A stretch of 64,000 nucleotides of DNA from Candidatus Ryanbacteria bacterium RIFCSPLOWO2_12_FULL_44_26 (GCA_001821765.1 MHOA01000007.1:9565-73564); one strand, 5' to 3'; shown: positions 40,344-58,557, numbered from the stretch's first letter. Translations and numbers: made by a program. Notes: generated by a model not told the origin, from the letters alone.

Positions 40344-40751
40344 ATGTCGTATGAAATTCTTAAGCATACGGCGGATATAAGGTTGCATGTAACAGCCAAT
40401 TCGTATAAATATTTGCTGTCTGAAGCCTTAGCTGGCGTATGTAATACACTGAAGGAGCATGTTGACAAGTCAAGTCCGGAAATCGTAAGAAATGCTATTG
40501 TTGAGTCGGCAGACAGAACAGCGCTGTTGGTTGATTTCTTAAATGAAGCACTCGCACTTGCGCACATTAATAAGGAAGTCTATATCGGAGTTATTTTCAC
40601 ACATTTTTCAGATACAGCCCTCCGAGCCCAATTAACCGGTCGAGGGGTATCAGGCTTTGATAGAGATATTAAAGCGGTGACATACCACGAGGCCGAGGTT
40701 TTGCAAAATGAGGAAGGGAAGTGGGAAGTAACGCTTGTTTTTGATATTTAA
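40344..40751 (+). CDS. archease
   Basis: MSYEILKHTADIRLHV N-terminus and ~135-aa length typical of archease (PF01951), the RtcB activator. Confidence 0.75.
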   Translation: MSYEILKHTADIRLHVTANSYKYLLSEALAGVCNTLKEHVDKSSPEIVRNAIVESADRTALLVDFLNEALALAHINKEVYIGVIFTHFSDTALRAQLTGRGVSGFDRDIKAVTYHEAEVLQNEEGKWEVTLVFDI

Positions 40752-40759
40752 GGTGTTGC

Positions 40760-41290
40760 ATGAAAAAACGCGTTTTTGTGGCGATAGGCATTTCAGAGGA
40801 GCTGAAGGGTAGAATTTCTCAGTGGCAAAATAAATTTTCAACACTACCAGTCAGATGGATCGGGAAAAAGAATTTACACGTCACGATTATCCCGCCATGG
40901 TATGAGGAAAACGTGGAAAAAGTAAAACAGGCGATACAAGAAGCTGTATGTCATGTCGGTTTTTTTGATTTGCAATTTCATCGGATAACATTCGGTCCCA
41001 GCCAGAATCGTCCGCGTCTTATCTGGATAGAAGGACCCAGCCCTAAAAAGCTTATTGATCTTACAATGAAGCTCGAAAAAGTGTTGAGAAAAAAAAGCGA
41101 AAGACGCTCTTTTCTTTTGCATCTTACCGTCGCGAGGTTTAAGCCGGAAATATACTCAACATTTTCCATAAAGCAACTGGATGAAAAAGTTTTATGGAAT
41201 GAAAAAGTGGCATCAGTTGTTCTTATGGAATCGCGTCTTTTAAAAGGCGGGGCTGACTACGAATCAATAGCCGCATGTTCACTACAATAA
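40760..41290 (+). CDS. RNA 2',3'-cyclic phosphodiesterase / 2'-5' RNA ligase (2H family, ThpR/LigT-like)
   Basis: Two H-x-T motifs (LHVTII and LHLTVARF) at the expected spacing; 176 aa. Confidence 0.7.
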   Translation: MKKRVFVAIGISEELKGRISQWQNKFSTLPVRWIGKKNLHVTIIPPWYEENVEKVKQAIQEAVCHVGFFDLQFHRITFGPSQNRPRLIWIEGPSPKKLIDLTMKLEKVLRKKSERRSFLLHLTVARFKPEIYSTFSIKQLDEKVLWNEKVASVVLMESRLLKGGADYESIAACSLQ

Positions 41291-41294
41291 ATGT

Positions 41295-42701: not shown

Positions 42702-42945
42702 TATGTTACATTTTTAACGCGAGCAGATGTTGTGATGGTTTCGCATCAACGTTTCGCTCGGCTCTGTTTTTTTAAAAAAAACTACAAAGCCGTCTTTTTG
42801 AAATAAAGGACGGTTTTTTTTCTTTACGCACTAATAAGTTCCGGAGCGGCCTTTTCAGGACAGCGGGAAGTCTGATATTGAAGAGCTCTTGACAAGCAAT
42901 CCGGATCTATGCTTTCTTATAAAATTAAAAGCTTGAAAAGACTTG

Positions 42946-43018
42946 GGTACGGACGCCGAGCAAAGCCCTTAAAAGGCTTGGTTTCCCCAAATTCGGCGTC
43001 CGTACCCAGGTTTTTTTT
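42946..43018 (+). terminator. long-stem hairpin plus T8 tract downstream of rtcB
   Basis: GGGTACGGACGCCGAG...(30 nt with inner AAGCC/GGCTT hairpin)...TTCGGCGTCCGTACCC followed by AGGTTTTTTTT. Confidence 0.45.
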
Positions 43019-43165
43019 AATCCCGGGAGGGCGCCCAAGGGTGTATTAACTTTTCCTCCATTATAACAACTTGACAAAGAAATGGAAATTTTCTGTAGTG
43101 TATAGTCAAATTTGACAGCATATATTGTATGTGGTTTTTTCTTGGAAAAACTGTGTACAACTATT

Positions 43166-43200
43166 GACATATATTGGCGTGACTACTACACTATAGGTAA
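43166..43200 (+). promoter_or_regulatory. putative sigma70-like promoter for the leader at 43214
   Basis: TTGACA - 17 nt - TACACT; a second TTGACA lies ~50 nt further upstream. Confidence 0.3.
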
Positions 43201-43213
43201 CAATTCAATAAAA

Positions 43214-43338
43214 GTGTCTTTGAGGGGAAACCAAGACAGAGCAGAGTGAAAGAAATTTATGGTTTCCCATAAAGGAAAGACAAATGTAAAAAGGCCAACC
43301 TTTGGTTTAAAGACCAAGGGTTGGTCTTTTTGTTTTTT
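43214..43338 (+). ncRNA. candidate structured 5' leader RNA, copy A (P1 hairpin GGGGAAACC/GGTTTCCC plus intrinsic terminator), unclassified
   Basis: GTGTCTTTGAGGGGAAACC...ATGGTTTCCC then the AGGCCAACCTTTGG...CCAAGGGTTGGTCT hairpin and TTTTTGTTTTTT. A homologous copy sits at 50491-50642. Confidence 0.5.
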
Positions 43339-43473
43339 ATCCGATTCCAGTGAGATGCAGGTTTCTTAAATGTTTCCTTTTAGGAAATCTGAATTTGGCT
43401 GGAATCACTGCCCATGGGCGGACGGCCAATGCAAAGGTCGAACACACATTAAAGGATAAACGATATTGAACCT

Positions 43474-44151
43474 ATGTTGAAAAAAATCTTTGTAGGACAC
43501 ATGACGTTTATCATGTCGTTGGGTCTTTTTGCGGTCCCGGCGCTTGCCAATAACTGGAGCAATGACGTCACTGTTGAAAACAACAATGGCGCCGTTGTAA
43601 ACAATTGGGTTGGCGCATTTGCCAGCACTGGCAGTAACGATGCCAACGGCGGATACGCCGGAGGCGCTGGAAACGGCGGCAATGCCGGAAACGGAAACGG
43701 AAGCAGCAACGACGAAAACAGCGCTGATGGCGGAAACGGCGGTGACGGCGGAAACGGCGGTGATATTCTCACCGGTTTTGCAGTTGCTGTCGCTGGTGTG
43801 ACGAACAACGTGAACTGGAATAAAACAGAAGTGGAGCCATGCGACTGCAGTGAGCATAATCACGACAACGACGTTCGCGTCAGAAACAACAATGGCGCCG
43901 AGGTAGGAAATGAAGTGCTCGCTAAAGCCAAGACCGGTAAAAACAATTCTAACGGCGGCGATACCGGTAACGGCGCAGGAAACGGCGGCAATGCCGGAGA
44001 CGGCGATGGCAGCAGCAATGACGGCAATAACGCCGATGGCGGCAATGCCGGAGACGGCGGCATGGGAGGTATCATTACGACACTCGATGCTCTTTCAGAA
44101 GTGTCAGTCGTAAATGTTATCAACCGAAACGTCACACGCATTCGACGTTAA
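43474..44151 (+). CDS. secreted Gly/Asn/Asp-rich repeat protein
   Basis: Signal peptide MLKKIFVGHMTFIMSLGLFAVPALA; two ~100-aa internal repeats (V.NNNGA.V.N....A...TG.N..NGG...GNGGNAG.G.GSSND.N.ADGGN.GDGG). Confidence 0.6.
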   Translation: MLKKIFVGHMTFIMSLGLFAVPALANNWSNDVTVENNNGAVVNNWVGAFASTGSNDANGGYAGGAGNGGNAGNGNGSSNDENSADGGNGGDGGNGGDILTGFAVAVAGVTNNVNWNKTEVEPCDCSEHNHDNDVRVRNNNGAEVGNEVLAKAKTGKNNSNGGDTGNGAGNGGNAGDGDGSSNDGNNADGGNAGDGGMGGIITTLDALSEVSVVNVINRNVTRIRR

Positions 44152-44273
44152 GTTTCTTGGAGGATGGAAATAACTTCATAGGGTTATTTCCTCCTTCAGG
44201 CAAGGTTTGGATCGTGGTCCAAACCTTGCCGTGAGGGAGATCTTTAAAAGCATTACGGCTTTAAAACGAACTC

Positions 44274-44903
44274 ATGAGCAAACAACGGAAAGCACCAGGT
44301 AATAATTTTATACTTGCAGGGCTGGCAGTGATGATCGTGCTGATTCCAGTAAAAACGTTGGCGTTTTTTGAGAACATTGATGTGAATGATTTTTTTTCTT
44401 GGGGCGATGAAGCGATTGTGATCACGAATAAAGTAGAAGCCACTGCAAACACGGGAGGCAATACGGCTAAAGAAGGAAAGATAAACACGGGGAGCGCGAA
44501 AGCATCGGTCGTTGTGGAAACAAAGACAGACGATGACATAACAGAAGTTGATGTTGTGGTTACCGTTGAAGGTGAGGCAACTTCTACAAAGCAAGAGATA
44601 CGGGCAGGCAATGTAACGGTTCAAGCTGAAGCAGGAAGCACCGCATCCGTTGACGTATATGTGAAGGAGGTGAGTTCAAACAGAGAGGAGCAATTTTTTG
44701 ATGGAGCGTTGCCGTTACCGCTTACCGGAGAAGATGAGGCGGCGGATACTTCAGAAGAAGATATTGGTACGTCAGAGAAAAGCAATGAGTTACCAAAAGA
44801 AGCGCCGGCCGGCATTGATAAGAAAAAGGGATTTATTGGCCATATCATTGTTTCATTAACATCATTTATACAACATGTATTTTCATTTTTTACATTTACA
44901 TAG
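44274..44903 (+). CDS. secreted repeat protein (membrane-anchored N-terminus, acidic C-terminus)
   Basis: N-terminal TM/signal, ATANTGGNTAKEG...TGSAKASVV motifs related to the neighbouring genes. Confidence 0.5.
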   Translation: MSKQRKAPGNNFILAGLAVMIVLIPVKTLAFFENIDVNDFFSWGDEAIVITNKVEATANTGGNTAKEGKINTGSAKASVVVETKTDDDITEVDVVVTVEGEATSTKQEIRAGNVTVQAEAGSTASVDVYVKEVSSNREEQFFDGALPLPLTGEDEAADTSEEDIGTSEKSNELPKEAPAGIDKKKGFIGHIIVSLTSFIQHVFSFFTFT

Positions 44904-47751
44904 AGTTAAAAAAGAACGCGTACCCGCATTGCTTTTGATTGCAACGCTTTCAATAAGTTATTCGGTTTTACCTTTATTTTCCTTGTCTGCGGAAGGAACA
45001 GAAGGAGCGACAACAGATCAATCAACAGAGGAAGTTGTCACAACTAATGTCAATGAATCTCCAGCGCCTTTAGAAGAGCAAGGAAGTAATGAGGTGACGG
45101 CGGGAAATGCTTCCGAACCCAACGCAAGTGATGTAGGGGAAGATACAGTGATAGAAACGGGCGATGCTGTAGCCGGAGCTGATGTGGTAAACGAGGTAAA
45201 TACTAATACGATCAGTTCCGAAAATTCCGGCCAAGACGGGACAACCAACGAAGGTGACGGAGATGCTGGCGGTAGCGAAGAAGCAGTAAATGCCACTTCT
45301 ACCACTCCAGCAGCACAAGATCAGAATGACCCTTCTTTAAATACGGATTTTATAGAAAACAATGCGACATCCACCCCCCATCTGTCAGATAACATGCAAG
45401 ATCCTAACGCATCTACCCTTGATGTTTCTGATGGTGATATGGCTGCTACAAATACTGCCCCATTGATCATAACATCGGACAATACCAATGAAGCAGCAGT
45501 TTCAAATGCCGTAGAGACTGGAGCTGGAACGGGTTCCAATGAAGCAAGCAATAATGGAGGAAATGTCGTCATTGATACGGGCGATGCCTACGCCAGCGCA
45601 AATGTTGCCAATATTGTAAACAGCAACTTTATCGGCGCTGAAGGGTTTTTCAATATACTGACGGTGTTTGGAGCAATGTTTGGTGATATTGAGATGGAGT
45701 ATGGTAGTTCCGCGCTTTGCAGTACGTTCGGATGCGATATCTCGGTGCTGGATCTTTTAAATAGAAATAGTGCCTTGGTGGAGAATACCGTTGAGGCAAA
45801 TGCAGTGACCGGTGAGAATACCGCCAGCAACAATGGGGGGGATGTGACGATTGCCACCGGCGATGCTTATGCGGCCGCAAACGTCGTCAATTTTGTAAAT
45901 ACCAATGTCGTAAGCGCGCATTTTCTCTCGTTTATTTTAAACGCGTTTGGACCATGGGTCGGCGATTTAGTCCTTCCCCCCGCTTCCTCTTTTGAAGAAG
46001 AGGGGAGCTTAGGATGTCCCAACTGTTTTGGAGAGGTGAGTGTTGCCAACGACAATACGGTCGACATTGAAAATGGCGTTGCTGCCGGAGCCGATACCGG
46101 TTCTAACAGCGCAAATGGCGGCGATGGTGACGGCGGAACAATTACAACAGGAAATGCTGTAGCTGAAGCAAATGTGATGACTGTTGCAAATATGAATATT
46201 TTCGGGAACAACTCCATTCTTATTTTCATACGCACTCAAGGACGATGGAGCGGCAACATTTTTAGTCTTCCACCGGGTGTTGAGGTTATTAAAACCGACA
46301 GCGGTTTTATTCTTGACGGTATGGGTATTTTCTCAAATGCCTCAACCGTTTTGGGGAATGCTTCCGTTGCGCTGAACGCGGCGAATGAGAATAGCGCAAC
46401 AATTGTAAATCAAGTGAGCGCCAACGCATCAACTGGTTCTAATACGGCGAACGCCAATGGCGGAGAAACTTCCATCACTACGGGAAACGCCTATGCGGCT
46501 GCTAACGTGATAAATTTTGCAAACATCAATGTGGTAAGCCGTAACTGGCTGCTTGCCATTGTCAATGTTTTTGGAGACTGGAACGGAGATCTCGCGTTTG
46601 GAAGACCGGATTTATGGATTGGAGAATCTGCGACCCCTTCCTCGGTGCCGCTTGAAGCCGGTTCAACGATCGTATACACCTTTACCTATCGGAATAACGG
46701 CAATGCCGCTGCTACCGGGGTGAGTATCACCGATGTGTTTGGTCCCCACTTAACTTTCCTTGACAGCGGCGGCGGGAATACCGGTGTTGCGGGTCAAATA
46801 AGCTGGGATATCGGCACGGTTGAGCCGGGCGAGTACGGCACGGTTTCCTACACCATGCAAGTGCCCACGCCCAGCAACGTTCCGGAAGGCCAAAATAGGT
46901 GGGTGACGAATACCGTATCTATAACCGCGTTTGAGGATGATGTAAGTACAGCAGACAACACCGATTCGCTCACTTTTAATGTATACGAAAGAAATTACGA
47001 TGTTTCCAAAACTCATTACTATCCTGATTTGAAGATTGAGAAAAGAAGAATTGGAGGGGGGATTGTCCTTCCGGGGGATAAAGTGGATTACGTGGTCGCC
47101 ATCTATAATCAAGGAATTGGATCTGCATATGATGTTGTTGTTGAAGATATCATGAAGGATCCGAATGGCGGAGTTGTCAGCGAACAGATGTGGGATTTGG
47201 GAGAGGTGTTTCCTGACGAGCGGATTACCCTTGATTACACCATAGAGCTTGCATCAAATGCGCCATATGGAACATACATCAATATCGCTCAGGCAAAAGG
47301 GTTGATGCCGTATGGAGGAGCGATGCTTCCTTATTATTCAGGCTATGGAACACAGGAACTTGAAGTGGGAGGCGTTGGAGGAGGTGAAACCGTTGAATTC
47401 GTGCCCCCACCAGAAAGCGTTCAACAGGATAGCGAGACGGTATTGGCGCTTGACGAAGCAAGTGTTGGCGAAACCCCTGTTCCCATCGTTGCTGCTGTTG
47501 TAGCAGGCGCAGATGGCGGGGGAGAAAACCCCGAGGGCAATGGATTTGAAAAGGTGTTTTTTGACCACGTGAATGTGGCTCAAGTGCACTCCTATCCTGA
47601 ATATATCATTGAAAAGAAGCATAAAGGCCTTGCTATGGCGGCCGTTCCGTTCCTCTTTGAATCTGCTTGGTCGGCATTGGCAGCTTTATTAGCGCTTCTT
47701 TTCGCGCTTTTCCTGTATTGGTTGATGCGCCAAAGAGAGATCAGGAAATAG
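44875..47751 (+). CDS. large surface protein with five ~40-aa ANTG.N.A.NNGG...TGDA.A.ANV.N.VN.N repeats, two DUF11-like domains and a C-terminal hydrophobic anchor
   Basis: Signal peptide; repeats at aa ~90, 215, 300, 385, 500; DUF11 (TIGR01451-like) segments PLEAGSTIVYTFTYRNNGNAAATGVSITDVF... and GDKVDYVVAIYNQGIGSAYDVVVEDI...; C-terminal AAVPFLFESAWSALAALLALLFALFLYWLMRQREIRK. Confidence 0.6.
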   Translation: MYFHFLHLHRVKKERVPALLLIATLSISYSVLPLFSLSAEGTEGATTDQSTEEVVTTNVNESPAPLEEQGSNEVTAGNASEPNASDVGEDTVIETGDAVAGADVVNEVNTNTISSENSGQDGTTNEGDGDAGGSEEAVNATSTTPAAQDQNDPSLNTDFIENNATSTPHLSDNMQDPNASTLDVSDGDMAATNTAPLIITSDNTNEAAVSNAVETGAGTGSNEASNNGGNVVIDTGDAYASANVANIVNSNFIGAEGFFNILTVFGAMFGDIEMEYGSSALCSTFGCDISVLDLLNRNSALVENTVEANAVTGENTASNNGGDVTIATGDAYAAANVVNFVNTNVVSAHFLSFILNAFGPWVGDLVLPPASSFEEEGSLGCPNCFGEVSVANDNTVDIENGVAAGADTGSNSANGGDGDGGTITTGNAVAEANVMTVANMNIFGNNSILIFIRTQGRWSGNIFSLPPGVEVIKTDSGFILDGMGIFSNASTVLGNASVALNAANENSATIVNQVSANASTGSNTANANGGETSITTGNAYAAANVINFANINVVSRNWLLAIVNVFGDWNGDLAFGRPDLWIGESATPSSVPLEAGSTIVYTFTYRNNGNAAATGVSITDVFGPHLTFLDSGGGNTGVAGQISWDIGTVEPGEYGTVSYTMQVPTPSNVPEGQNRWVTNTVSITAFEDDVSTADNTDSLTFNVYERNYDVSKTHYYPDLKIEKRRIGGGIVLPGDKVDYVVAIYNQGIGSAYDVVVEDIMKDPNGGVVSEQMWDLGEVFPDERITLDYTIELASNAPYGTYINIAQAKGLMPYGGAMLPYYSGYGTQELEVGGVGGGETVEFVPPPESVQQDSETVLALDEASVGETPVPIVAAVVAGADGGGENPEGNGFEKVFFDHVNVAQVHSYPEYIIEKKHKGLAMAAVPFLFESAWSALAALLALLFALFLYWLMRQREIRK

Positions 47752-47787
47752 TTGATTTTTTTGCGCAATAGTAGTAAGGTAAGAGGC

Positions 47788-50334
47788 ATGAAAAGACCAC
47801 TGTTTTTAGCATTATTGTTCGTTGGCATTTTCATTTTCTCTGCCGGCTCGGCTGAAGGCGTTTTGAGAGGGGATACAGAACGCCTTGTTCAAACGGAACG
47901 GCCTTTGTATCGCGCAGGTGAAGTCATTATCAAACGGAAAGGAGAAGCATGGTTTGAGCGCGTATCTGTTGCTTCTGGAGAAGATGTTACAGGAGCCCTT
48001 CGGCGTTTTCGAGGGAGAAGTGACATTGAATATGCAGAGCCAAACTATATTGCCCGTGCATTTTTTACACCCAACGACCCTTATTATTCATATCAGTGGC
48101 ATTTAGATAATGCCGTTTACGGCGGCATTGAGACTGAACAGGCTTGGGATATTGCGCGAGGGAACGGGGTGACGATTGCCGTTGTTGACACCGGCGTTGC
48201 ATATGAAAATAACGGGTCTTTCTATAAAAAAGCGCCAGATCTTGTGAATACCGCTTTTACTGCCGGCTTCGATTTTGTAAATAACGATACACACCCGAAC
48301 GATGACAACGGTCACGGTACTCACGTAACCGGCACGCTTGCACAAAGCACTGATAACAATACCGGCGTTGCAGGAGTTGCCTTTCAAGCAAGCATTATGC
48401 CGGTCAAAGTGCTTGATAGTCGGGGGAGCGGCACGTATGCGGACGTGGCGGATGGCATTCGATGGGCGGCTGATAACGGGGCTACGGTTGTTAATCTTTC
48501 GCTTGGCGGACCGACGCCCGCAACGTATTTAGAAAGCGCTATACGGTACGCTTATGAGAAAGGAGTTACCATTGTAGCGGCATCAGGAAATGACGGCGCA
48601 GGTGTTGTGTCGTATCCGGCCGCGTATGATGATTATGTCATTGCCGTTGGCGCGACGCGTTTTGATGAAGCGCGCGCTCCATATTCTAATTACGGCTCTG
48701 CTCTTGATATTGTCGCTCCCGGCGGAGACCTTTCAGTTGATCAAAATGGTGATGGCTACGGCGACGGAGTGTTACAGCAAACATTCAACAACCGTCCCTA
48801 CAGCTTCGGCTACTTCTTTTATCAGGGGACCTCAATGGCCACACCGCATATTGCAGGCGTTGCGGCGCTTGTGATCTCCAGCGGCATTGCGACAACTCCC
48901 GATCAAGTGCGGCTGGCTTTACAGTCAACGGCTGATGACTTGGGAGATTCTGGCCGAGATGATATGTTTGGCTGGGGAATCGTTAACGCCGGAGCAGCTC
49001 TTGGCTATACTACAGGGCCGGCAGATAATCCTCCCTCGGTTGCGATAACATCTCCTGCTGCAAACGCAACCGTTGAGGGCACGATCAACATTTTAGCCGC
49101 TGCGACGGATGACAACGGAATTGACAAAGTTGATTTTTATGCTGACGGCGCACCTATTGGCGCTGATACTGCTTTTCCATATGAAATTTCGTGGAATTCA
49201 GCAAGTGTTGCTGATGGTTCGCACGCGCTGAAGGTTGTTGCCGTTGATACTGTTGGTCAAACCGCAGAGCATTTGATATATGTTATTGTTGACAACATTA
49301 ATAATCCGCCGGTTGCTAACGCAGGCCCCGATCAGTCATTGATGGATTCCAATGATGACGGCGTTGAATCAGTTGCCCTCAACGGCTCCGGTTCCAGCGA
49401 TCCGGATGGCGGAATTGCGGCGTACGAATGGAGGGAGGGATCGAATATTCTTGGAACGTCGCCAATCATTACTCCAACTTTTGTGGTGGGCATTCATGTA
49501 GTAACACTGACGGTTGTTGATGATAAAGGCGCGGCAGGAAGTGATGATGTTACTGTGGAGGTATTGGCATATCAAAACATGTTGCCTGTTGCCAACGCCG
49601 GATCTGATAAAACGGTTACTGACAATGACAATAATGGTTCGGAGCCGGTGACCTTGGACGGCTCTGGTTCCTACGATCCGGATGGTTCTATTGTTGCCTT
49701 TGAATGGAAAGAAGGGCCGAGTGTTTTTGGAACATCAGCGCTGATAGTAAAAGACTTTGCAGTAGGCATTCATACAGTAACGCTTACTGTGACCGATGAT
49801 AAAGGGGCGGCGTCTTTAGATGAGGTTGTCGTTACGGTAAACCCAAAGCCGAGCGGGCCGACCACGATGTTTTTTGATGATTTTGAAGGGGGAAACCCCG
49901 CTACTCACTGGACAGAGTCAGGTGATGGCAACTGGACTATTGAGCAACCGGCAGAGCGCAATATTTCCGGCCACGCCTCCGGCAATCTCGTTGCACACGC
50001 TGATCAGTGCAGCAGCGCTCAAGGGTGTGTTTTGACGCTGAAGGACGCCATTGATCTAAGCGGTTATTCAAGCGCATCGCTTCAATTCTGGAGGTATGTG
50101 GATCGCTCGCTTGATAATGGTGAGTTTTTAAAAGTGGAGCTTTACAATGGGAGTTCGTGGGACACGGTTTTTTACTGGACGTACCGATCGGGCGCCGATG
50201 ACAAGTGGTACTATAAAACCGTTGATCTTTCCGGTTATCTGGTGAATACCTTTAAAGTGCGCTTTACGTCAAAAGAAAACAGCAACGGCGAAGACACTGA
50301 AATTGACGACGTGCTCATTGAAGCATTGCTATAG
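47788..50334 (+). CDS. subtilisin-like serine protease (peptidase S8) with tandem PKD-like domains and a C-terminal beta-sandwich domain
   Basis: RBS AAGGTAAGAGG; signal peptide; catalytic triad motifs VAVVDTGV (Asp), HGTHVTGT (His), GTSMATPHIAGVAAL (Ser); three repeats beginning P(P/V)ANAG(P/S)D. Confidence 0.8.
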   Translation: MKRPLFLALLFVGIFIFSAGSAEGVLRGDTERLVQTERPLYRAGEVIIKRKGEAWFERVSVASGEDVTGALRRFRGRSDIEYAEPNYIARAFFTPNDPYYSYQWHLDNAVYGGIETEQAWDIARGNGVTIAVVDTGVAYENNGSFYKKAPDLVNTAFTAGFDFVNNDTHPNDDNGHGTHVTGTLAQSTDNNTGVAGVAFQASIMPVKVLDSRGSGTYADVADGIRWAADNGATVVNLSLGGPTPATYLESAIRYAYEKGVTIVAASGNDGAGVVSYPAAYDDYVIAVGATRFDEARAPYSNYGSALDIVAPGGDLSVDQNGDGYGDGVLQQTFNNRPYSFGYFFYQGTSMATPHIAGVAALVISSGIATTPDQVRLALQSTADDLGDSGRDDMFGWGIVNAGAALGYTTGPADNPPSVAITSPAANATVEGTINILAAATDDNGIDKVDFYADGAPIGADTAFPYEISWNSASVADGSHALKVVAVDTVGQTAEHLIYVIVDNINNPPVANAGPDQSLMDSNDDGVESVALNGSGSSDPDGGIAAYEWREGSNILGTSPIITPTFVVGIHVVTLTVVDDKGAAGSDDVTVEVLAYQNMLPVANAGSDKTVTDNDNNGSEPVTLDGSGSYDPDGSIVAFEWKEGPSVFGTSALIVKDFAVGIHTVTLTVTDDKGAASLDEVVVTVNPKPSGPTTMFFDDFEGGNPATHWTESGDGNWTIEQPAERNISGHASGNLVAHADQCSSAQGCVLTLKDAIDLSGYSSASLQFWRYVDRSLDNGEFLKVELYNGSSWDTVFYWTYRSGADDKWYYKTVDLSGYLVNTFKVRFTSKENSNGEDTEIDDVLIEALL

Positions 50335-50490
50335 GCGCCTTTTTACGCTTGATTGTGGGGCTTGCTATTTCCTTCATAAAGCAGTAAGGTTACGGTGGTG
50401 TTCGTTCCGCCAAAGCAGACTGCTTAAAAGCAAATCGTTTGCTGGGCAAGGTGCTTTGGGAGCGAATTGAAACAAATATATAATATTAGT

Positions 50491-50642
50491 GTGTCTTTTA
50501 AGGGGAAACCGAAGACGCCGGTGTTTTTGTGAAGCTTAAAGAACCGTTTCAGCGGACAGCGCATGGTTTCTCCTTTCAGACTCTTTCTAAGGGATAAAAA
50601 GCCAGCCTTTGCTTTCCATGCTGAAGGGTGGCTTTTTGTTTG
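50491..50642 (+). ncRNA. candidate structured 5' leader RNA, copy B (same motif as 43214-43338)
   Basis: GTGTCTTTTAAGGGGAAACCGAAGAC...CATGGTTTCTCC then the AGCCAGCCTTTGC...GAAGGGTGGCT hairpin and TTTTTGTTTGG. Confidence 0.5.
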
Positions 50643-50730
50643 GCAGCTTGGTATGTATATCGCTGTTGTTTCGGAAGTGAAAAGATTTATTGTAAACCGT
50701 TTATCGTTTTGATTCCCGAGGTCATGTTTT

Positions 50731-52281
50731 ATGGTGGATAAGATTATCCAATATTCAAAAAGGTATTTGTTTGAGTGGAGCATATTTGTTGCACAACTCA
50801 AGGCGACGGTTATTGCGGTATTCCCATTTCTTAGATCCATTCATATATCCGAGGAGGTTTCCCTAGATTTTCAAAACAGCGATGATTATCTTTTTCTTGC
50901 TTTCGTTCACAGTGTTAAAAAACACATACATATTGAGACCGTTTCGCTGATGACTGTGGTGTTCACGCTGTTCTTTGGGGCCGTGTACGGCGCGGTACAA
51001 TTTTTTCACGTTCCGGGACTGGTTGTGATATCCAGCATTGTTGCTTTTTTTTATTTGGTCTTGATGGCGTTTAAACTCTGGATTGTTTATCACGGCGTGT
51101 CCTATCCGCTGATCGATTTTTCGAAAAAGGAGATTGAGCATATAAACGACGATGATTTGCCTCTCTATACCATATTAATTCCTCTATACAGAGAAGCCGA
51201 AGTAGCTGACCAAGTCATAAAAGCGATGTCCGCCATAGATTATCCAAAAGACAAGCTGGATATTATCATCACACTAGAAAAATATGATGCGGAAACTCTT
51301 TCAGCTCTTAAAAAGTCAGGTCTGCCTTCCCATTTCAAGACGCTGATACTGCCCGATGTATGTCCTAAAACAAAGCCGAAAGCGCTGAATGTCGCTTTTC
51401 TTGAGGCAATGGGTGAGTTTTTAGTCATCTACGATGCTGAAACTGTTCCTGATGCGGATCAGCTTAAAAAAGCGTATCTTGCGTTTCGATCACATCCGGA
51501 TATTGCGTGTTTCCAAACCCGCCTTGAACATTACAATGCAAACCATAATATATTGACAAAACTTTTTAATACCGAATACTCTTTCCACTACGATCTCTTT
51601 TTGCCCGGTTTGCAAAAGCATAATTTTCCCGTTCCGCTTTCAGGTCACAGCATTCACTTCAGGCGTCACGTCATAGAGAAGATAGGAGCGTGGGATCCGT
51701 ATAATGTAACGGAAGATTGCGATATCGGAATTCGGCTGTATCGTCAGGGGTTTAAGACGGGAATGATGAATTCAGTGACTTATGAAGAGGCCACCTGTAC
51801 GTTAAAAAGCTGGACTATCCAAAGAACAAGATGGATGAAGGGGTTTATCCAGACAAGCATTGTGCATTTGAGGCATCCGTTGCGCTTTAAACAGGAAGTG
51901 GGAGGGTGGAGAAATTTTTTCGTTTTTTTATTAACCGTGCCCGGGACGGTGGCGGTTAACATTCTTAATTTAGTGCTATGGGTGATTCTTGTCATATGGC
52001 TTGTCATGCACTCTTCGTTCATTCAAACGCTCTATCCGCAGCCGGTCCTTTATATGTCAGGGGTTGCATTTATCGTCGGCAGTTTCATATTTACGTACCT
52101 CAATCTGCTTGGGGCCTACCGGAGGAAAAAGTTTTATTTGGTAAAGTACGGCATGCTCACGCCAATATATTGGGTGATGATTGCTATAGCAACCACACGC
52201 GCAGCATTACAGATTATAAAGAATCCTCACGGATGGGAAAAGACAAAACACGGCTCGCACTTATCAAAACAATCCGGCTAG
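50731..52281 (+). CDS. processive family-2 glycosyltransferase (cellulose synthase / CslA / NodC-like), membrane-integrated
   Basis: D, DxD (YDAE), TED (VTEDCD) and QRTRW (QxxRW) motifs; TM helices at both ends. Confidence 0.7.
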   Translation: MVDKIIQYSKRYLFEWSIFVAQLKATVIAVFPFLRSIHISEEVSLDFQNSDDYLFLAFVHSVKKHIHIETVSLMTVVFTLFFGAVYGAVQFFHVPGLVVISSIVAFFYLVLMAFKLWIVYHGVSYPLIDFSKKEIEHINDDDLPLYTILIPLYREAEVADQVIKAMSAIDYPKDKLDIIITLEKYDAETLSALKKSGLPSHFKTLILPDVCPKTKPKALNVAFLEAMGEFLVIYDAETVPDADQLKKAYLAFRSHPDIACFQTRLEHYNANHNILTKLFNTEYSFHYDLFLPGLQKHNFPVPLSGHSIHFRRHVIEKIGAWDPYNVTEDCDIGIRLYRQGFKTGMMNSVTYEEATCTLKSWTIQRTRWMKGFIQTSIVHLRHPLRFKQEVGGWRNFFVFLLTVPGTVAVNILNLVLWVILVIWLVMHSSFIQTLYPQPVLYMSGVAFIVGSFIFTYLNLLGAYRRKKFYLVKYGMLTPIYWVMIAIATTRAALQIIKNPHGWEKTKHGSHLSKQSG

Positions 52282-52292
52282 ATTAAAAACGT

Positions 52293-54116
52293 ATGCTAAA
52301 GCGCACCACACAAACAACGTTGTCAGCAAAACTAGCAAGAACAGAGGTTCTGTTGTTTGCTGCTGTATTGGTTATCGGATCGCTGTATGCATGGTATGTC
52401 TACGAGCTTGGGTTTACCTTGTTTCTTGTTGACCAAAATGCCCATTTAAATATTTCACGCCTTATCATTGACAGTTTAACGCCTGGAATCAGTCAGATCG
52501 GTTTTTGGCCCCCGCTTCTCCATATACTCATGATTCCGTTTTCGTTCATTGATGTGCTGTATCAAAGCGGTCTTGCCGCCCCTTTTGCGCTGGTGCCGGT
52601 TTTAGGAGTGGGGGCGCTTTTTCTTTATAAACTGCTGTTTCTTTTTACAAAAAGAAAAGCAGCAGGTGTTCTGGGCGCGTTTCTGTTTGTTTCTAATCCG
52701 TACGTGCTTTACTACTCTGTAACGCCAATGACCGAAGCGCTTTTCATATCATCCCTCTTTATTGTCGCGTATTTTCTTGCACACTGGTTGGTTACAGAGC
52801 AATTTTCTTCACTATTATATCTCGGTATATCTATAACGCTTGCAGGCCTTGCCCGCTTTGAGGGATTTCTGCTCGTTCCGATCGCGGTAGTTATTGTTGT
52901 TCTAAAACTAGTATTGCAAAAGAAACACTATCATGAGATTGAGGCGCTGCTTATTTTGTTCGGGCTGATAGCGGTGCTCGGAGGCGTCTTTACTGTTATG
53001 TACGGATGGGTATTTACGGGTGATCCGTTTGCATTTCTCAATAACCCCTTTTCCCCCCAAGCTCAACAGCGGGACTACTTTTTACCATCCAAACACAGCA
53101 TTGTAAATTCATTTCTGTATCTTCTTTACGCTTTATACCACCTGATAGGAAAAACCTTAGGTCTGCTTGCAATAGGTGCATTTGCGGCGCTGCTGTTCTT
53201 GCTTAGAAACAACCGTTTTAATTTTATTGCCGTAAGTTTGGTGCTGATAAGCCCCTTCTTTTTTGACTGGTTTGCCCTTTTTCAGGGCAGCGCTCTTATT
53301 TATGTCCCGGACCTGCCTCCCTTCGGAGAGTTTGCGAACGAGCGATATGGTCTTTATCCGTTCGGGTTCACGGTCTTTGCGGCAGGAATGTTTGTATATT
53401 TTTTGTATGAGCGGGCGCTGTCGCAAAGGGTACTTTGGCCTGTGACTGCAATCGCGACGGGCTTGATCATGGGGCTTCTTTTTTGGAATAGCGCCTTACT
53501 TTTTTATAACGTAACCTATGCGGACACGTTTAAGGTTATCCAAATGTCCGGTAAGGGTTCATTAATACCGGATCAGAGAGAACTTGCGTTGGCGTTGAGG
53601 GGTCAGTATGATTACGGGAAGATTTTGCTTATGCGCGCTATGCAGAACCACATAACCGTTACGGCACAAATTCCGCTCAAGAGCTATATTGTTGAAAGCA
53701 ATTACCCTTACTTCGATGAAGCGCTGGAACTGCCGTGGTTTTTTGCGCGATGGGTGGTTATGTATAACCCCGACATAGCGGTTGTGGAGTGGAGGAAGGA
53801 AAACGAACGCATTTCGGCTCGCTGGGCAAATTCGGATGAATTTCGTGAAGCATATGAGCTTGTTTTTGAAAACGAATCCGAACGTTTATACCGTTTAAGG
53901 GAAGATGTTGTAAGAAAAAAAGCCGCGATGATTGGTATGGATGCATCAACTATTCCTTCATTGAATCCTGATATGGTTCGGTGGGAAACAAGGACGGTAT
54001 ATGCTGAAATTACAGGGAAGTTGAGAGTTTACTATGAGGGGATCATGGTGAAAGCTGACGAAGCAAAGACGTTAGGTTTTGAGATGCAAACCGATGAGGA
54101 TGCTGAAGATAATTGA
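52293..54116 (+). CDS. GT-C fold-like polytopic membrane protein (PMT/ArnT-like putative glycosyltransferase)
   Basis: ~12 TM helices over the first 420 aa, then a soluble C-terminal domain; architecture only, no catalytic motif confirmed. Confidence 0.4.
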   Translation: MLKRTTQTTLSAKLARTEVLLFAAVLVIGSLYAWYVYELGFTLFLVDQNAHLNISRLIIDSLTPGISQIGFWPPLLHILMIPFSFIDVLYQSGLAAPFALVPVLGVGALFLYKLLFLFTKRKAAGVLGAFLFVSNPYVLYYSVTPMTEALFISSLFIVAYFLAHWLVTEQFSSLLYLGISITLAGLARFEGFLLVPIAVVIVVLKLVLQKKHYHEIEALLILFGLIAVLGGVFTVMYGWVFTGDPFAFLNNPFSPQAQQRDYFLPSKHSIVNSFLYLLYALYHLIGKTLGLLAIGAFAALLFLLRNNRFNFIAVSLVLISPFFFDWFALFQGSALIYVPDLPPFGEFANERYGLYPFGFTVFAAGMFVYFLYERALSQRVLWPVTAIATGLIMGLLFWNSALLFYNVTYADTFKVIQMSGKGSLIPDQRELALALRGQYDYGKILLMRAMQNHITVTAQIPLKSYIVESNYPYFDEALELPWFFARWVVMYNPDIAVVEWRKENERISARWANSDEFREAYELVFENESERLYRLREDVVRKKAAMIGMDASTIPSLNPDMVRWETRTVYAEITGKLRVYYEGIMVKADEAKTLGFEMQTDEDAEDN

Positions 54117-54141
54117 CGATATCAGTAATATCATTATCACG

Positions 54142-57100
54142 ATGAGTACAAATATATCTACACCACTGACAAAAACGTTCGTACGCCCGCTTTGTGCTGT
54201 AGCATTTTTTGTGTTTTTCGGTCTTGTCTTTGCCGGTGTTGCAGATGCGCATGAGATGCGCATCAACACCGGAGGCCTCTCCTTCGTTGATACCGGCGGC
54301 AACACTTGGGAAGCCGATGCGCATTTCAACACCGGCAACACCTTCTCCACCGCTGCTGCGATCAGCAACACGGCCGATGACCTGCTCTATCAGACCGAGC
54401 GGTGGGATGATGCGCCCGCCCCAGAGCTTGCGTATGCCATTCCCGTAGCAAACGGCGATTACATGGTTACCCTCCACTTTGCAGAAATCTGGTCAGGAGC
54501 TTTTTCCATCGGTGCACGGGTGTTCGATGTAGGGATGGAAGGAATCACCGTCTTAGACAATATTGATATCTATGCCGAGGCCGGAGCAAACACCGCGCTT
54601 ACAAAAACCTTTACTGCCACCGTCACCGACGGCGCATTGGACATACTTTTTACCCATGTAGTCCAGAATCCCAAGATCGCTGGGATTGAGGTGATGGAAC
54701 ATGAGGAAGAGACGCACCTTATGCATGTGGTGGCGGGTCCTGATCAAACCGTAGTGGATGATGACGGTGATGGCGCCGAATTAGTCACGCTGGATGCAGG
54801 TGATTCCCACACCCATGCGTTTGGCGAAACAATTGTAAGCTGGGTTTGGGCGGAAGGCGTCGAAACCATTGGCACAACTGAAGTCATCACCGCACCTTTT
54901 TCGGTCGGTGTCCATGAAATTTTGCTTGTTGCAACAGATAGTGCAGGAAATACCGGCAGCGATGCGGTAATGGTCACAGTGCTTGCGCCGAACGATGTAC
55001 CCGGCCTTGCCGGCTATTATTTTGATTTTACCGGCACCCCGCTTACATCCATACCGGATGTAAGCGCCCTGCAAGCCGACTGGGCGCAAATAGAGCCAAA
55101 TCTTAATTATGATGCGACATCAGGAAATTTTGCTGGAACTCCTTTTAGCGAAAACTTTGCCGCCCGCTATACGGGATTTATAGATATTCCGGTTGGCGGA
55201 TCATACGGCTTCGCGATAGAAAGCGATGACGGCTCGCGGCTTTTTATAGACGACGCGCTTTTGATCAACAATGACGGACTCCATGCGATGAAGAAGATGT
55301 CCGCGGTCAGCGCGTTATCTGCCGGGATGCATAAGGTTATGATTGAATTTTTTGAGGCAAGCGGGCAAGCAGGATTGAAATTTTACTGGACGCCTCCTGC
55401 GATAGCAGAGCAGATTGTTCCTTCAAGCGCGTTGTTTTATGAATATCCAGCGCTCCTCCCCGTCATCAATGTTATTGATCCTCTTTCAGGGCCCGAGGTC
55501 GGCGGCAATAAAGTAACGATAAACGGTTTTGGGTTTATTTTTTCTGTAGATGAAACAACGGTCAATTTCGGGGGAACAGCGCTTACGGGGAGCAGCCTTA
55601 CGATTATTGACGAAAATACTATAGAGGTTATTGCACCTGCGGGAATCGGAACGGTAGCGGTAAGCGTGGCAACGCCAAATAGCGTAAGCAAAGGAGAAAA
55701 TTATCTTTATATCGAAGATGCTCCGCCGCCCGTTCTGTTTACGAGCGGGACGCTCTTTTCAGGTATTAATGGCCCGACAAGCCTTGCTTTTGGACCTGAC
55801 GGCAAGCTCTATGTAGGAACGCAGTTCGGGACAGTATGGGTGTTAACGCTTGATGATAATCTCAACGTCATTAATTCCTATTCTACCGGCATCATTCAGG
55901 ATTCAGAGTCGACGTTTCGGAGTATTCTTGGCATCGCCTTTAATCCTTTAGATGATCCTTTAAACCCAAAGCTCTATGTGGCGCACAGCTTTCTTTTTCA
56001 TGGAGACGATATTGATTTTTATAAAGGAAAAATAAGCACCTTGAGCGGTCCCGGTTTAAGCGTTAAAGAAGACATTATCACGGGTCTTCCGGTTTCCGAT
56101 CACGATCACGGCATGAACGGCATGGAATTCGGAATGAAAGGGGAAATGTATATTCAAGTCGGAGGCAATACCAATGCCGGTGTCCCGGGAGTGCTCAGTT
56201 CTTCGGGGGAGCTGGATGAAGGGGCGCTTTCAGCGGCCACGCTGGTTGCCCATCTTGAGCGGGAAAATTTTGATGGGAATGTCACTCATAACTCAGCGGG
56301 GGAGCAAACTGGAGGGTTTGATGTTGAGGTTTTTGCTTCCGGTTTTCGCAACCCCTATGATTTGGTTCTGCATTCTAACGGAGGGCTCTATGGAACTGAC
56401 AACGGCCCGAACTTCGGGTATGGAGGGAAATCAACCGGGTGCGCGGCAGAAGGCCCTGACCCTGAAGAGCCTGACGAGCTCAATCTCATTGTTGAGAATG
56501 GATATTATGGCCACGCAAATCGTCTGCGCGGAGCAAGCGATCCTCGGCAGTGCGTGTGGCGCAGTATCTTTGAGCCGAGCGACGCGCAATATACCGCTCC
56601 CATGACAACATTCACCCCATCTACCAATGGCATTACCGAATATCGCTCAAACACCTTCGGCGGGCAATTAAAGGGCCATCTGCTTGCCTCGCGCTGGGAA
56701 GGGGAGCTCTATGACGTTGAGCTTTCAGGTGATGGCAAGAGCGTGGCAAGCCAAAACATCTTAACGCCGCAGGGGGGTCTTGATGTAACGACTGGTCCTG
56801 ATGGAACGATTTTCATCGCCCAACATCTGGCTGGTAAGATTATTTATCATAAGCCCAGTGAACCCGTCCCTTCCGTTCCTCATATTATATCGGCAACACC
56901 CTACCGAGGTCCGCTGACCGGAGAACGAACAGCGCTTATTACCGGTTCTGGGCTTAATGCGGGCGGTATGGCCATGGTCACGTTTGGAGGAAAAAATTGT
57001 CCAACCGTTTCTGTTACATCAACAGCTATAAAGTGCATGGTTCCAGCCGGCGACGCGCCGGGAGCGGTAGACATAGTGGTAACTACCGCAGGCATGACCG

Positions 57101-58557
57101 CCGTTCTTCCCGGGGGATATACCTATATGGATTCAACACTTCCGCCTCCGCCGCCCTTGGTTGGCAAGTGGTTTGCCAAGGTGCCGCTTCCCATTGCAAT
57201 CGGTGAGATGTCGGCTGCGGCGATTGGAGATTTTGTTTATGTGCTGGCTGGTCACGGCGAAGGCGCATATAACGATACGCTCTACCGGTATGATACGATG
57301 CAAAATGTCTGGGAGAGTATGGCGCCGCAGACGGTAGCCCCGTTGGCGGATCACGCAGCTGTTGAGGTTATTAACGGGAAGATATATATGTTTGGCGGGA
57401 TTTTACCTCCGGGGGAAGGAGAATCAAACACACTTGCGATTTATAATCCTGTCACGGATGCATGGTCGCTTGGTTCACCCCTCATGAAAGAAGGCGTGCC
57501 GTATGGGCTTGGCTCGGTTGCATCCGGCGTTATTGGCGGAAAGCTCTATATTGCGGGAGGCATCCACGATGGGAATCTTGCCGGGAATCCAACTGACACG
57601 TTCGTGTATAATCCGGTGGCGGACATATGGACGGAACTTGCCCCAATGCCGTCCGGCAGGAATCACGCCGCTGGCGTGGGTTACAGCGGCAAGTTCTACG
57701 TTTTTAGCGGCAGGCAAGGAGAGAATGATCCAAACGAATTGACGTTTGACGATTCGTACGTGTACGATCCATCCTCTAATACATGGGGAATGCTCGCTCC
57801 CATTCCGACGCCAAGAGGCGGCATGGGAACAGCTGTTGCGCTGCTGGACGAACTTTTTGTAATTGGCGGGGAGGGCGGAGGACCGTCGTCCGGGACGTAT
57901 CCGAATGTTGAAGCGTATAATCCCGTAACAAACACATGGCGCGCACTGCCGGATCTCCCCACGCCCCGGCATGGTATTTATCCCGTGCTGGTTGGGGATG
58001 ATATCCATGTGGTCGCCGGTGGGACAATGGAGGGTCATTCCCATAGCGCAATACACGAAATGTACAATCCCTACGGTATTGATGAGCACCAAGCGCCATC
58101 AGCAGGCATCCGCATCAACACCGGCGGCCTCTCCTTCGTTGATACCGGCGGCAACACTTGGGAAGCCGATGCGCATTTCAACACCGGCAACACCTTCTCC
58201 ACCGCTGCTGCGATCAGCAACACGGCCGATGACCTGCTCTATCAGACCGAGCGGTGGGATGATACCCCAGCTCCGGAATTAGCGTATGCTATTCCGGTAG
58301 ACAATAGTCATTACGAAGTGACCCTCCATTTTGCCGAAATCTGGTCGGGCGCCTTTGCGGTTGGCGCGCGCGTGTTTGATGTGGCCATTGAAGGCGCCAC
58401 GGTTCTAGACGACTTTGACATTTATGCCGAAGCGGGAGCAAACACCGCGCTTACGAAAACCTTCCATGTTGAGGTCTCCGATGGCACGCTGAACATCCTC
58501 TTTTCCCGCGAAGTCCAAAATCCCAAGATCGCTGGGATTGAGGCGGTCAGGCACTAA
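54142..58557 (+). CDS. giant secreted carbohydrate-active multidomain protein: malectin - PA14 - IPT/TIG - sugar-dehydrogenase-like propeller - IPT - Kelch propeller - malectin
   Basis: Signal peptide at the internal Met (MSTNISTPLTKTFVRPLCAVAFFVFFGLVFAGVADA). Malectin-like domains at both ends (INTGGLSFVDTGGNTWEADAHFNTGN...LYQTERWDD...LHFAEIW...RVFDV...NPKIAGIE). PA14 (GLAGYYFDF...SDDGSRLFIDDALLINND...GLKFYW). Kelch repeats (GKIYMFGG, GKLYIAGG, GKFYVFSG). Confidence 0.65.
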   Translation: MSTNISTPLTKTFVRPLCAVAFFVFFGLVFAGVADAHEMRINTGGLSFVDTGGNTWEADAHFNTGNTFSTAAAISNTADDLLYQTERWDDAPAPELAYAIPVANGDYMVTLHFAEIWSGAFSIGARVFDVGMEGITVLDNIDIYAEAGANTALTKTFTATVTDGALDILFTHVVQNPKIAGIEVMEHEEETHLMHVVAGPDQTVVDDDGDGAELVTLDAGDSHTHAFGETIVSWVWAEGVETIGTTEVITAPFSVGVHEILLVATDSAGNTGSDAVMVTVLAPNDVPGLAGYYFDFTGTPLTSIPDVSALQADWAQIEPNLNYDATSGNFAGTPFSENFAARYTGFIDIPVGGSYGFAIESDDGSRLFIDDALLINNDGLHAMKKMSAVSALSAGMHKVMIEFFEASGQAGLKFYWTPPAIAEQIVPSSALFYEYPALLPVINVIDPLSGPEVGGNKVTINGFGFIFSVDETTVNFGGTALTGSSLTIIDENTIEVIAPAGIGTVAVSVATPNSVSKGENYLYIEDAPPPVLFTSGTLFSGINGPTSLAFGPDGKLYVGTQFGTVWVLTLDDNLNVINSYSTGIIQDSESTFRSILGIAFNPLDDPLNPKLYVAHSFLFHGDDIDFYKGKISTLSGPGLSVKEDIITGLPVSDHDHGMNGMEFGMKGEMYIQVGGNTNAGVPGVLSSSGELDEGALSAATLVAHLERENFDGNVTHNSAGEQTGGFDVEVFASGFRNPYDLVLHSNGGLYGTDNGPNFGYGGKSTGCAAEGPDPEEPDELNLIVENGYYGHANRLRGASDPRQCVWRSIFEPSDAQYTAPMTTFTPSTNGITEYRSNTFGGQLKGHLLASRWEGELYDVELSGDGKSVASQNILTPQGGLDVTTGPDGTIFIAQHLAGKIIYHKPSEPVPSVPHIISATPYRGPLTGERTALITGSGLNAGGMAMVTFGGKNCPTVSVTSTAIKCMVPAGDAPGAVDIVVTTAGMTAVLPGGYTYMDSTLPPPPPLVGKWFAKVPLPIAIGEMSAAAIGDFVYVLAGHGEGAYNDTLYRYDTMQNVWESMAPQTVAPLADHAAVEVINGKIYMFGGILPPGEGESNTLAIYNPVTDAWSLGSPLMKEGVPYGLGSVASGVIGGKLYIAGGIHDGNLAGNPTDTFVYNPVADIWTELAPMPSGRNHAAGVGYSGKFYVFSGRQGENDPNELTFDDSYVYDPSSNTWGMLAPIPTPRGGMGTAVALLDELFVIGGEGGGPSSGTYPNVEAYNPVTNTWRALPDLPTPRHGIYPVLVGDDIHVVAGGTMEGHSHSAIHEMYNPYGIDEHQAPSAGIRINTGGLSFVDTGGNTWEADAHFNTGNTFSTAAAISNTADDLLYQTERWDDTPAPELAYAIPVDNSHYEVTLHFAEIWSGAFAVGARVFDVAIEGATVLDDFDIYAEAGANTALTKTFHVEVSDGTLNILFSREVQNPKIAGIEAVRH
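54255..54690 (+). repeat. intragenic direct repeat copy 1 (malectin domain), partner at 58107-58542
   Basis: First ~160 nt and last ~35 nt are nearly identical to the partner copy; the middle is ~75% identical. Confidence 0.7.
58107..58542 (+). repeat. intragenic direct repeat copy 2 (malectin domain)
   Basis: See copy 1. Confidence 0.7.

Follow-up and report, generated by a model that had tools for sequence, protein, structure and literature searches.

A stretch of 64,000 nucleotides from Candidatus Ryanbacteria bacterium RIFCSPLOWO2_12_FULL_44_26 (GCA_001821765.1 MHOA01000007.1:9565-73564), here called the window, carries two copies of a structured 5' leader RNA, A and B, each of which stands in front of a set of + strand genes. 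The operon behind copy A (43474..50334, +) encodes a 225-aa Gly/Asn-rich protein with a signal peptide, a 209-aa protein, a 958-aa DUF11/CLIPPER repeat protein and an 860-aa subtilase, and its first three genes are kept behind the leader in other genomes of the Candidate Phyla Radiation (CPR, or Patescibacteria). The operon behind copy B (50731..58557, +) encodes a processive GT2 glycosyltransferase similar to cellulose/PNAG synthases, a PMT_2-like membrane protein and a 1492-aa protein with malectin, kelch and PA14 domains. The first start codons lie 135 nt after leader A (ATG 43474) and 89 nt after leader B (ATG 50731), in keeping with the 90-135 nt given in an initial annotation of the window.

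That annotation had described two copies joined by shared sequence blocks, and both are present as it stated. Copy A reads GTGTCTTTGAGGGGAAACCAAGAC at 43214-43237 and, after a gap of 21 nt, ATGGTTTCCC at 43259-43268, while copy B reads GTGTCTTTTAAGGGGAAACCGAAGAC at 50491-50516 and, after a gap of 46 nt, ATGGTTTCTCC at 50563-50573. The string AGGGGAAACC occurs exactly twice in the 64 kb, once in each copy, against a chance expectation of 0.14, and two occurrences were reached in 0/100 shuffles. The variable insert that had been placed between the blocks also exists, although its length has to be corrected from 28-54 nt to 21 nt (A) and 46 nt (B) when counted from AAGAC to ATGG, or to 26 nt and 52 nt when counted from GGGGAAACC. 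Both leaders are preceded on the + strand by promoter-like, sigma-70-like sites. For leader A (43164..43192), the -35 element TTGACA at 43164 is separated by 17 nt from a -10 element TACACT that ends at 43192, and for leader B (50456..50484), TTGGGA at 50456 is separated by the same distance from TATAAT, ending at 50484. The inferred transcription start falls near 43199 for copy A and near 50491 for copy B, which in the latter case is the first base of the hairpin described below; this hairpin begins 0-16 nt into the inferred transcript. Equivalent promoter-like sites are found 5' of the leaders of three loci used for comparison (L024, L031, and L033).

With the covariance models of Rfam 15, no family reached its gathering threshold for the leader, in agreement with its first description as an unclassified RNA. 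Transfer RNAs alone pass the threshold in the window and in the related loci L007 and L010, the three in the window (11045-11115, +; 11185-11257, -; 27612-27682, -) being its sole Rfam matches. The weak matches returned in E-value mode were discarded as noise driven by the terminator, namely Spy1186876 (25.7 vs 208 bits) and the greA leader (24.1 vs 60), and a PyrR match (16.8 vs 54 bits, E=7) was rejected as resting on the terminator as well.

The first element of the leader is a local hairpin, S1, formed by GTCTT/AAGAC pairing and absent from the initial annotation. In copy A (43215..43238, +) it consists of the arm TGTCTT(T)G, the loop AGGGGAAAC (43223-43231) and the arm CAAGACA, and in copy B (50491..50518, +) of the 5' arm GTGTCTTT, the loop TAAGGGGAAACC (50499-50510) and the 3' arm GAAGACGC. 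The second element, S2, is a helix between the S1 loop and a downstream GGTTTCYCC strand (TGGTTTCCC at 43260-43268 in copy A, GGTTTCTCCTT at 50565-50575 in copy B), and corresponds to the pairing formerly called P1. The minimum-energy fold of both copies pairs GGGGAAACC with GGTTTCYCC, and the whole-element folds have z-scores of -6.9 (A) and -3.4 (B). Together, S1 and S2 have the topology of an H-type pseudoknot.

Both helices are supported by covariation among the 12 leaders of the family. In an alignment of these (A4) that was registered by hand, with artificial linkers and N for gaps, a procedure which favours pairing, S1 has compensatory changes at 7/7 pairs with 91.7% of cells paired, and S2 at 5/13 pairs with 77.8% of cells paired. 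The overall covariation score is 0.473, compared with 0.172 for shuffles, of which 0/500 reach 0.473, and with 0.09-0.13 for slid partners. RNAalifold also predicts S2 from an unedited MAFFT alignment, and the P1 pairing is borne out on both grounds. The invariant and near-invariant columns, GGG.A.C and T.C, all fall within S2, and neither the sequence nor the length of the segments L1 and L3 is constant (19-48 nt for L3). The outer helix of the minimum-energy fold, in which GUCUUU pairs with a distal AAAGAC, was considered and set aside: the distal AAGAC is missing in L024 and L007, and it is the local S1 that covaries instead.

The third element is an intrinsic terminator, T1. In copy A (43287..43340, +) a 20-bp stem within the hairpin 43287-43332 is followed by TTTTTGTTTTTT, and in copy B (50594..50643, +) the hairpin 50594-50639 is followed by a T-run. 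A hairpin with a U-run stands after S2 in 11/12 leaders, L036 being without a clear T1, and the terminator that had been placed after P1 in both copies is therefore a feature of the family. No antiterminator or alternative fold competing with T1 was found in the leaders; the T1 loops of some of them hold GUUUCC-like strings, not consistently. As for the layout, which had been called riboswitch- or attenuator-like, attenuator-like is the favoured description, and the riboswitch is the weaker reading in view of the conservation confined to S2, the variable joining segments and the missing antiterminator.

The leaders also hold a feature that had gone unremarked, a short upstream open reading frame (uORF) that starts at the ATG of ATGGTTTC. 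In copy A it has 36 codons (43259..43369, +; MVSHKGKTNVKRPTFGLKTKGWSFCFLSDSSEMQVS), the first of which are the C-rich S2 strand, and it reads through T1. In copy B it has 49 codons (50563..50712, +; MVSPFRLFLRDKKPAFAFHAEGW...), likewise crosses T1, and ends 19 nt short of the GT2 start codon. The ATG lies 2-19 nt before the C-rich strand, or within it, in 11/12 leaders, and it is also inside the pairing strand in a divergent form of the leader, L039. S2 contains or abuts this ATG, as a cis helix that buries a translation start, in the way known from DsrA-rpoS-type activation. In leaders with T1, the frame reaches or crosses the terminator in 11/11 cases, where composition-matched shuffles lead one to expect 2.1/11. 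Multiplied together, the individual null probabilities give 1.2e-8, a figure that is indicative only, since the criterion (an ATG between positions -20 and +3 relative to the C-rich strand, with a frame that reaches T1) was chosen after the sequences had been viewed.

The peptides carry no regulatory codon runs, and it seems that the act of translation matters and the product does not. An SD-like (Shine-Dalgarno-like) tetramer is found within 25 nt of the start in 12/38 larger genes of the window, and the genome mostly initiates without such sequences. Start-site accessibility is a plausible control point because the genome rarely uses Shine-Dalgarno sequences, and initiation at the uORF probably relies on an unstructured start region, which S2 removes. 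The G-rich loop was also considered as a Shine-Dalgarno sequence and rejected, as it lies 25-50 nt from the uORF ATG in a genome that rarely uses them.

A search for further homologues yielded ten more versions of the leader from Saccharibacteria (L007), Taylorbacteria (L010/L024) and other Patescibacteria (eight contigs), so that the family counts 12 distinct leaders including copies A and B, plus the divergent L039. A pattern scan of one genome per species gave 19 matches, of which two are real, in an uncultured Saccharibacterium (L007) and in a Candidatus Taylorbacteria (L010, identical to the metagenome locus L024); the other 17 are chance matches inside genes. In each of the two real ones, a TATAAT box leads directly into GGTCTTGAGGGGAAACCAAGAC, with ATGGTTTC(Y)CC about 20 nt further on and then a terminator, and the same three genes follow as behind copy A. 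For the 958-aa protein there are more than 200 relatives in Patescibacteria, and nine loci retrieved through them have a leader at the equivalent place (9/9), but in diverged form. Thus, L026 reads ATTTGG-AGGGGAA-CCAAAT ... TCCCCTC, L028 reads CACTCGG-AGGGGGA-CCAGTG, L025 reads TCTCTCG-TTGGGGAAAC-CGGGGGA ... GTTTCTCCAAC and L031 reads GTTCG-AAGGGAAAC-CGAAC ... GTTTCCC, while L036 has a 10-bp stem with the loop CGGGGAAA ... TTTCCCCG, and L040, L033, and L027 hold further variants. With copy A, L007 and L010/L024, these nine make up 12 operon loci, and the leader stands in front of the copy A-type operon in 12/12 of them. In L039 (6925-7050), the leader lacks S1 and T1; across a three-way junction, its 5' G-rich strand pairs with CUUUGUAUGGUUC, where the ATG of the uORF is found. 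This frame ends some 10 nt short of the first gene, an arrangement suggestive of translational coupling in place of attenuation.

A leave-out covariance model built from the ten foreign leaders only, whose automatic consensus structure is poor (2 bp), returned copy A as the top non-training match in 311 kb (23.4 bits, E 0.0097), and missed copy B in the same search because of its 46-nt insert. A strict-pattern scan of metagenomes gave one match, a duplicate of L010, and a viral collection gave nothing by DNA pattern or by DUF11 protein profile. A descriptor scan of all loci found no convincing extra leaders, with a descriptor so unspecific that it matched 66 times in shuffled sequence. In close strains (L001-L004 and others) the leader is identical, without microdiversity.

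The GT2 orthologues in two other genomes stand without a leader. The placement upstream of cell-surface loci that had been ascribed to both copies consequently holds across genomes for the operon of copy A only, and because of these leaderless orthologues copy B is best read as a lineage-specific recruitment in front of GT2.

A further RNA-like element, which the initial annotation does not contain, lies directly upstream of the copy A promoter. This element, U (42935..43020, +), combines an outer stem of about 25 bp, an inner hairpin AGCC-CTTAAAA-GGCT, an unpaired C-rich segment and a T-run; its fold has an energy of -49.5 kcal/mol and a z-score of -7.75. The C-rich segment, GGTTTCCCC(AAAT) at about 42979-42992, leaves GGUUUCCCC unpaired in the predicted fold. 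U occurs at the same position in 12/12 operon loci (the window and 11 others), with compensatory changes at 25/26 pairs of the outer stem. A covariance model of U gives a single match in each locus and no other in 425 kb, with scores on the + strand that exceed those on the - strand by 25-50 bits. Rfam holds nothing that matches U. Promoter-like, sigma-70-like sites precede U in L033 and L024, and its 3' end is terminator-like. In L027, L031, and L039 the gene 5' of U lies on the other strand, and for this reason U is not the terminator of the upstream gene. In the window, U comes directly after an RNA-repair cluster (40344-42701) with genes for an archease, a LigT-like 2',5' ligase/phosphoesterase and RtcB.

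In sequence, the C-rich segment of U is identical to the cis strand of S2, and it changes together with the loop of the cognate leader. In the window, U and copy A share 12 nt of complementarity, GGGGAAACCAAG with CUUGGUUUCCCC, which spans the S1 loop and continues into the 3' arm. The pairing reaches 12 nt in L027 and 14 nt in L039; in L026 the loop GGGGAAC faces GUUCCCC in U, with one base fewer on both sides, and in L028 the loop GGGGGA faces UCCCCC. Over all loci, the contiguous Watson-Crick match between cognate loop and U is 6-14 nt long, with a mean of 8.75, where non-cognate pairs average 6.9 (permutation p = 0.00025), although the core of the complementarity is conserved, so that non-cognate pairs also match over 6-9 nt. 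Contiguous match length was used in this comparison in place of RNAduplex energies, which were too permissive. Copy B has no U of its own, and its loop matches the U of the window over 9 nt; its lineage-specific reuse of the leader fits a U that acts in trans. Separately, 10 nt of the 5' arm and loop of copy B (CUUUUAAGGG, 50494-50503) are complementary to the inner hairpin of U (CCCUUAAAAG, 42966-42975), which is possibly a second contact, or chance. A type I toxin-antitoxin system made up of the uORF and U was considered and rejected, as the peptides are neither conserved nor hydrophobic and the position is fixed before one operon.

What the comparison establishes is a conserved leader family in which S1 and S2 covary and T1 and the uORF are placed consistently, together with a conserved U whose C-rich part co-varies with the leader loop. 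That U is a separate transcript, that the uORF is translated, that its translation suppresses T1, and the direction of the regulation, we infer from these patterns. The reading put forward here, with a little less than even confidence, is that both copies are members of a family of 5' leaders, spread across the CPR, which act as translation-coupled transcription attenuators. The leader would then be attenuator-like and probably gated by RNA and translation instead of by a ligand.

In the proposed mechanism, transcription would start a few bases before S1, which would present the loop AGGGGAAAC. About 20-50 nt further on, the C-rich strand GGUUUCYCC would emerge and pair with this loop to form S2, and the same strand would provide the first codons of the short, non-conserved uORF that runs into or through T1. 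Once S2 has formed, the uORF start would be buried, no ribosome would follow the polymerase, T1 would fold and transcription would stop. If the loop is otherwise occupied, the start would stay free, a ribosome would cross T1 and block the hairpin, and the polymerase would enter the operon. The best candidate for a competitor is U, a long hairpin RNA that would mimic the cis strand and capture the loop, following an anti-antisense logic, and one U could serve both copies A and B. S1 would be the early form that presents the loop, and S2 the thermodynamic end state.

In its widest form, the proposal is that a tandem small RNA mimic, a start-hiding helix and a terminator crossed by ribosomes make up a three-part RNA circuit, conserved from Saccharibacteria to Parcubacteria, by which these episymbionts control their main surface-protein operon, and that further leaders recruited elsewhere, such as copy B before the polysaccharide synthase, can draw on the same single small RNA. 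These two statements, taken jointly, are offered as a possibility and with considerable reserve.

Several points weigh against the attenuator and the circuit built on it, besides the hand-made alignment, the after-the-fact uORF criterion and the conserved core of complementarity noted above. Both the transcription of U and the translation of the uORF are predictions from sequence, and the promoter of U is unconvincing in the window and likewise in L031. The segments that join S1 and S2 measure 0-3 nt, so that a full S2 of 8-11 bp cannot coexist with an intact S1, and because of these short segments the geometry could be that of a partial pseudoknot or of alternative folds. The cis S2 of L028 is weak (5 bp), L036 offers a GTG start only in addition to its unclear T1, and L039 does without S1 and T1. 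The uORF peptides, of 13-49 residues, are unrelated and not conserved, and no ribosome-binding signal is evident. Lastly, coupling between ribosome and polymerase within 30-45 nt would require a pause.

Among the other accounts of these features, control by a protein is unlikely, and retains some appeal. An RNA-binding protein would read the G-rich loop or the C-rich strand, and U would be a decoy of the Csr/Rsm kind. The same C-rich sequence is unpaired in two RNAs, the S1 loop contains GGGA/GGA, and the sequence conservation goes beyond the needs of pairing, all of which would suit a protein. However, the loop and its C-rich partners change together, down to the one-base deletion on both sides in L026, as expected from RNA-RNA pairing. 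U has one C-rich single-stranded site rather than many and none of the several GGA loops of a Csr/Rsm sponge, and the Pfam tables of the loci show no gene for an RNA-binding protein conserved beside the operon.

A riboswitch for a metabolite or second messenger, in which the S1/S2 pseudoknot would be the aptamer and the ligand would set S2 and thereby T1 or uORF translation, is distinctly improbable. An H-type pseudoknot followed by a terminator, a position before surface and polysaccharide genes, and the existence of small pseudoknot riboswitches of comparable size speak for it. Nevertheless, the leader matches nothing in Rfam, and the conserved positions lie nearly all within S2 while L1 and L3 vary, which leaves few candidates for a binding pocket; the strict conservation of S2 is accounted for by a third partner, U. 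The 3' strand of S2 overlaps the uORF start, which might serve as a shared expression platform, and no antiterminator was found.

Just as improbable is the reading as two independent small RNAs, where the segment from the promoter to T1 would be one small RNA that pairs with U as its sponge, and the operon mRNA would start elsewhere. Both units have promoter-like and terminator-like boundaries, and the 20-bp stem makes T1 of copy A very strong. Yet there is no consistent promoter between T1 and the first gene, and the uORF pattern would be left unexplained. A third conserved domain of the leader, D, and the constant position before the same operon argue for a leader instead.

Domain D (43350..43400, +) lies between T1 and the first gene, and consists of GAGATGCAGGTTTC and, after it, the hairpin TTTCCTTTTAGGAAA. 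Its homologue in other genomes is GGTCGATGCAGGTTTG...TTCCCTTAAGGGA (L024 675-725; L007 ~4752-4700, - strand; L025 5494-5550; L031 8018-8065; L033 8573-8625), with the consensus GGTCGAT(G/A)CA..GTTTG.TC and then a hairpin, or GGUCGAU..GUUUG.. with the cap UCCCUUAAGGGA in RNA form. Its stem covaries (CGGT/ACCG, CCGT/ACGG, CCAT/ATGG) around the tip TTCCCTTAAGGGA, and it has no match in Rfam.

Processive antitermination, in which S1 would recruit a NusG-like factor or modify the polymerase so that terminators are ignored, as with LoaP hairpins, EAR or put, is very unlikely: a promoter, a conserved hairpin, a terminator and a long operon for large surface or polysaccharide proteins would suit it, but neither EAR nor any similar family is matched in Rfam, the Pfam tables show no NusG/KOW paralogue within the 12 loci, and S2, the uORF and U would go unexplained. 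Least credible of all is a 5'-terminal hairpin that does no more than guard the mRNA of highly expressed surface proteins against decay from the 5' end, with everything else incidental. This would agree with the place of S1 near the inferred start, and would leave without explanation T1, the uORF and U as well as the covariation of S2 and the conserved sequence of the loop.

The surroundings of the leaders hold further features. The 225-aa (43474-44151) and 958-aa (44875-47751) proteins share a repeated module, I.TG.A.A..N..N.VNTN, unchanged in all 13 Patescibacteria homologues of alignment A5 and covered by no Pfam or NCBIfam model; judging from its sequence, it defines a CPR-specific family of surface repeats with C-terminal DUF11 domains. 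In another Parcubacteria contig (L041), a different leader is repeated at 3690-3900 and 7855-8060 before two GT2-type genes, with GGCATTGCATTTTT..., GATTGGTCAC.CGTGATC.CAC.AGGAGTCAAATAGTGAAACCGGCTTAAACC and then a terminator, and it has the look of a further cis-regulatory RNA of polysaccharide genes, likewise unclassified. In L033, repeated GTGTTGAACATTTCGAGTGTTGAACATTT units (7740-7930 and 8480-8515) lie on either side of an assembly gap upstream of U and turn up again within the leader; they may be a small repeat or a mobile element. The window also contains a 2213-aa open reading frame (20254-26895, -).

Members of the CPR have tiny genomes with few recognisable regulators, and need surface structures for their attachment to host cells; to our knowledge, almost nothing has been established about their gene regulation. 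An elaborate RNA control region before a lineage-wide surface-protein operon, in 12/12 loci from several CPR classes, points to the regulation of a step at the centre of their lifestyle. If the proposed model is true, U and the leader would be the first regulatory pair of small RNA and leader described for the CPR, and would represent an undescribed combination of small RNA control and translation-coupled attenuation, acting through a leader frame on an intrinsic terminator. The leader and U also amount to two or more RNA families that are new to databases such as Rfam, and U, the S1 loop, the uORF and T1 are concrete parts for the few Saccharibacteria that are genetically tractable.

Among known systems, the small pseudoknot riboswitches (preQ1-I/II, SAM-II/V, fluoride, and guanidine-III) resemble the leader in their size and in a loop that pairs with a downstream strand overlapping a translation start. 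Unlike them, the leader has no covariance-model match and no conserved unpaired pocket nucleotides, its L3 is 19-48 nt long, and a conserved third RNA, U, carries the same strand. The C-rich small RNAs RsaE/RoxS of Firmicutes pair with G-rich sites, and the unpaired C-rich motif of U is likewise complementary to a G-rich leader sequence; the target in this case is not a Shine-Dalgarno sequence, and there is no relationship to them in sequence or in Rfam. In the antisense attenuation of plasmids (pT181, pIP501, pAMbeta1, and Anti-Q/prgQ of pCF10), fully complementary countertranscripts refold the leader into a terminator. There, as proposed here, a small RNA meets the nascent leader through a hairpin loop and decides on the use of an intrinsic terminator. 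U differs in being no full countertranscript: it is encoded on the same strand as the leader, about 200 nt upstream, with a complementarity of 6-14 nt only, it offers no alternative fold of T1, and its predicted effect is read-through by way of translation.

Two further parallels are found in separate mechanisms. In the first, the small RNAs DsrA, RprA, and ArcZ activate rpoS by anti-antisense pairing. We know of no chaperone for such small RNAs in CPR bacteria. Similarly, Asr9 unfolds the 5' untranslated region of ISPpu9 tnp (PMC8450116). As in these systems, a cis helix hides the start and a candidate trans RNA is complementary to the inhibitory strand. The differences are that the freed start would be that of a uORF coupled to a terminator, not of the main gene, and that the candidate U is encoded in tandem, directly upstream on the same strand, with a short complementarity of 6-14 nt. 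The second parallel is the pyrBI operon of E. coli, where the leader frame overlaps an intrinsic terminator and a ribosome translating it prevents the hairpin. The uORF overlaps T1 before the structural genes in the same manner (11/11 leaders with T1). The leader departs from ribosome-mediated attenuators in lacking the scheme of 1:2, 2:3 and 3:4 hairpins, the mutually exclusive 2:3 and 3:4 hairpins and codon runs of the trp/his type, and a conserved peptide; unlike in pyrBI, the decision would apparently be taken at initiation through S2, and not by ribosome stalling or UTP-sensitive pausing of the polymerase. By analogy with both, the model proposed here would join the translation-coupled attenuation of pyrBI to the anti-antisense logic of DsrA-rpoS and Asr9.

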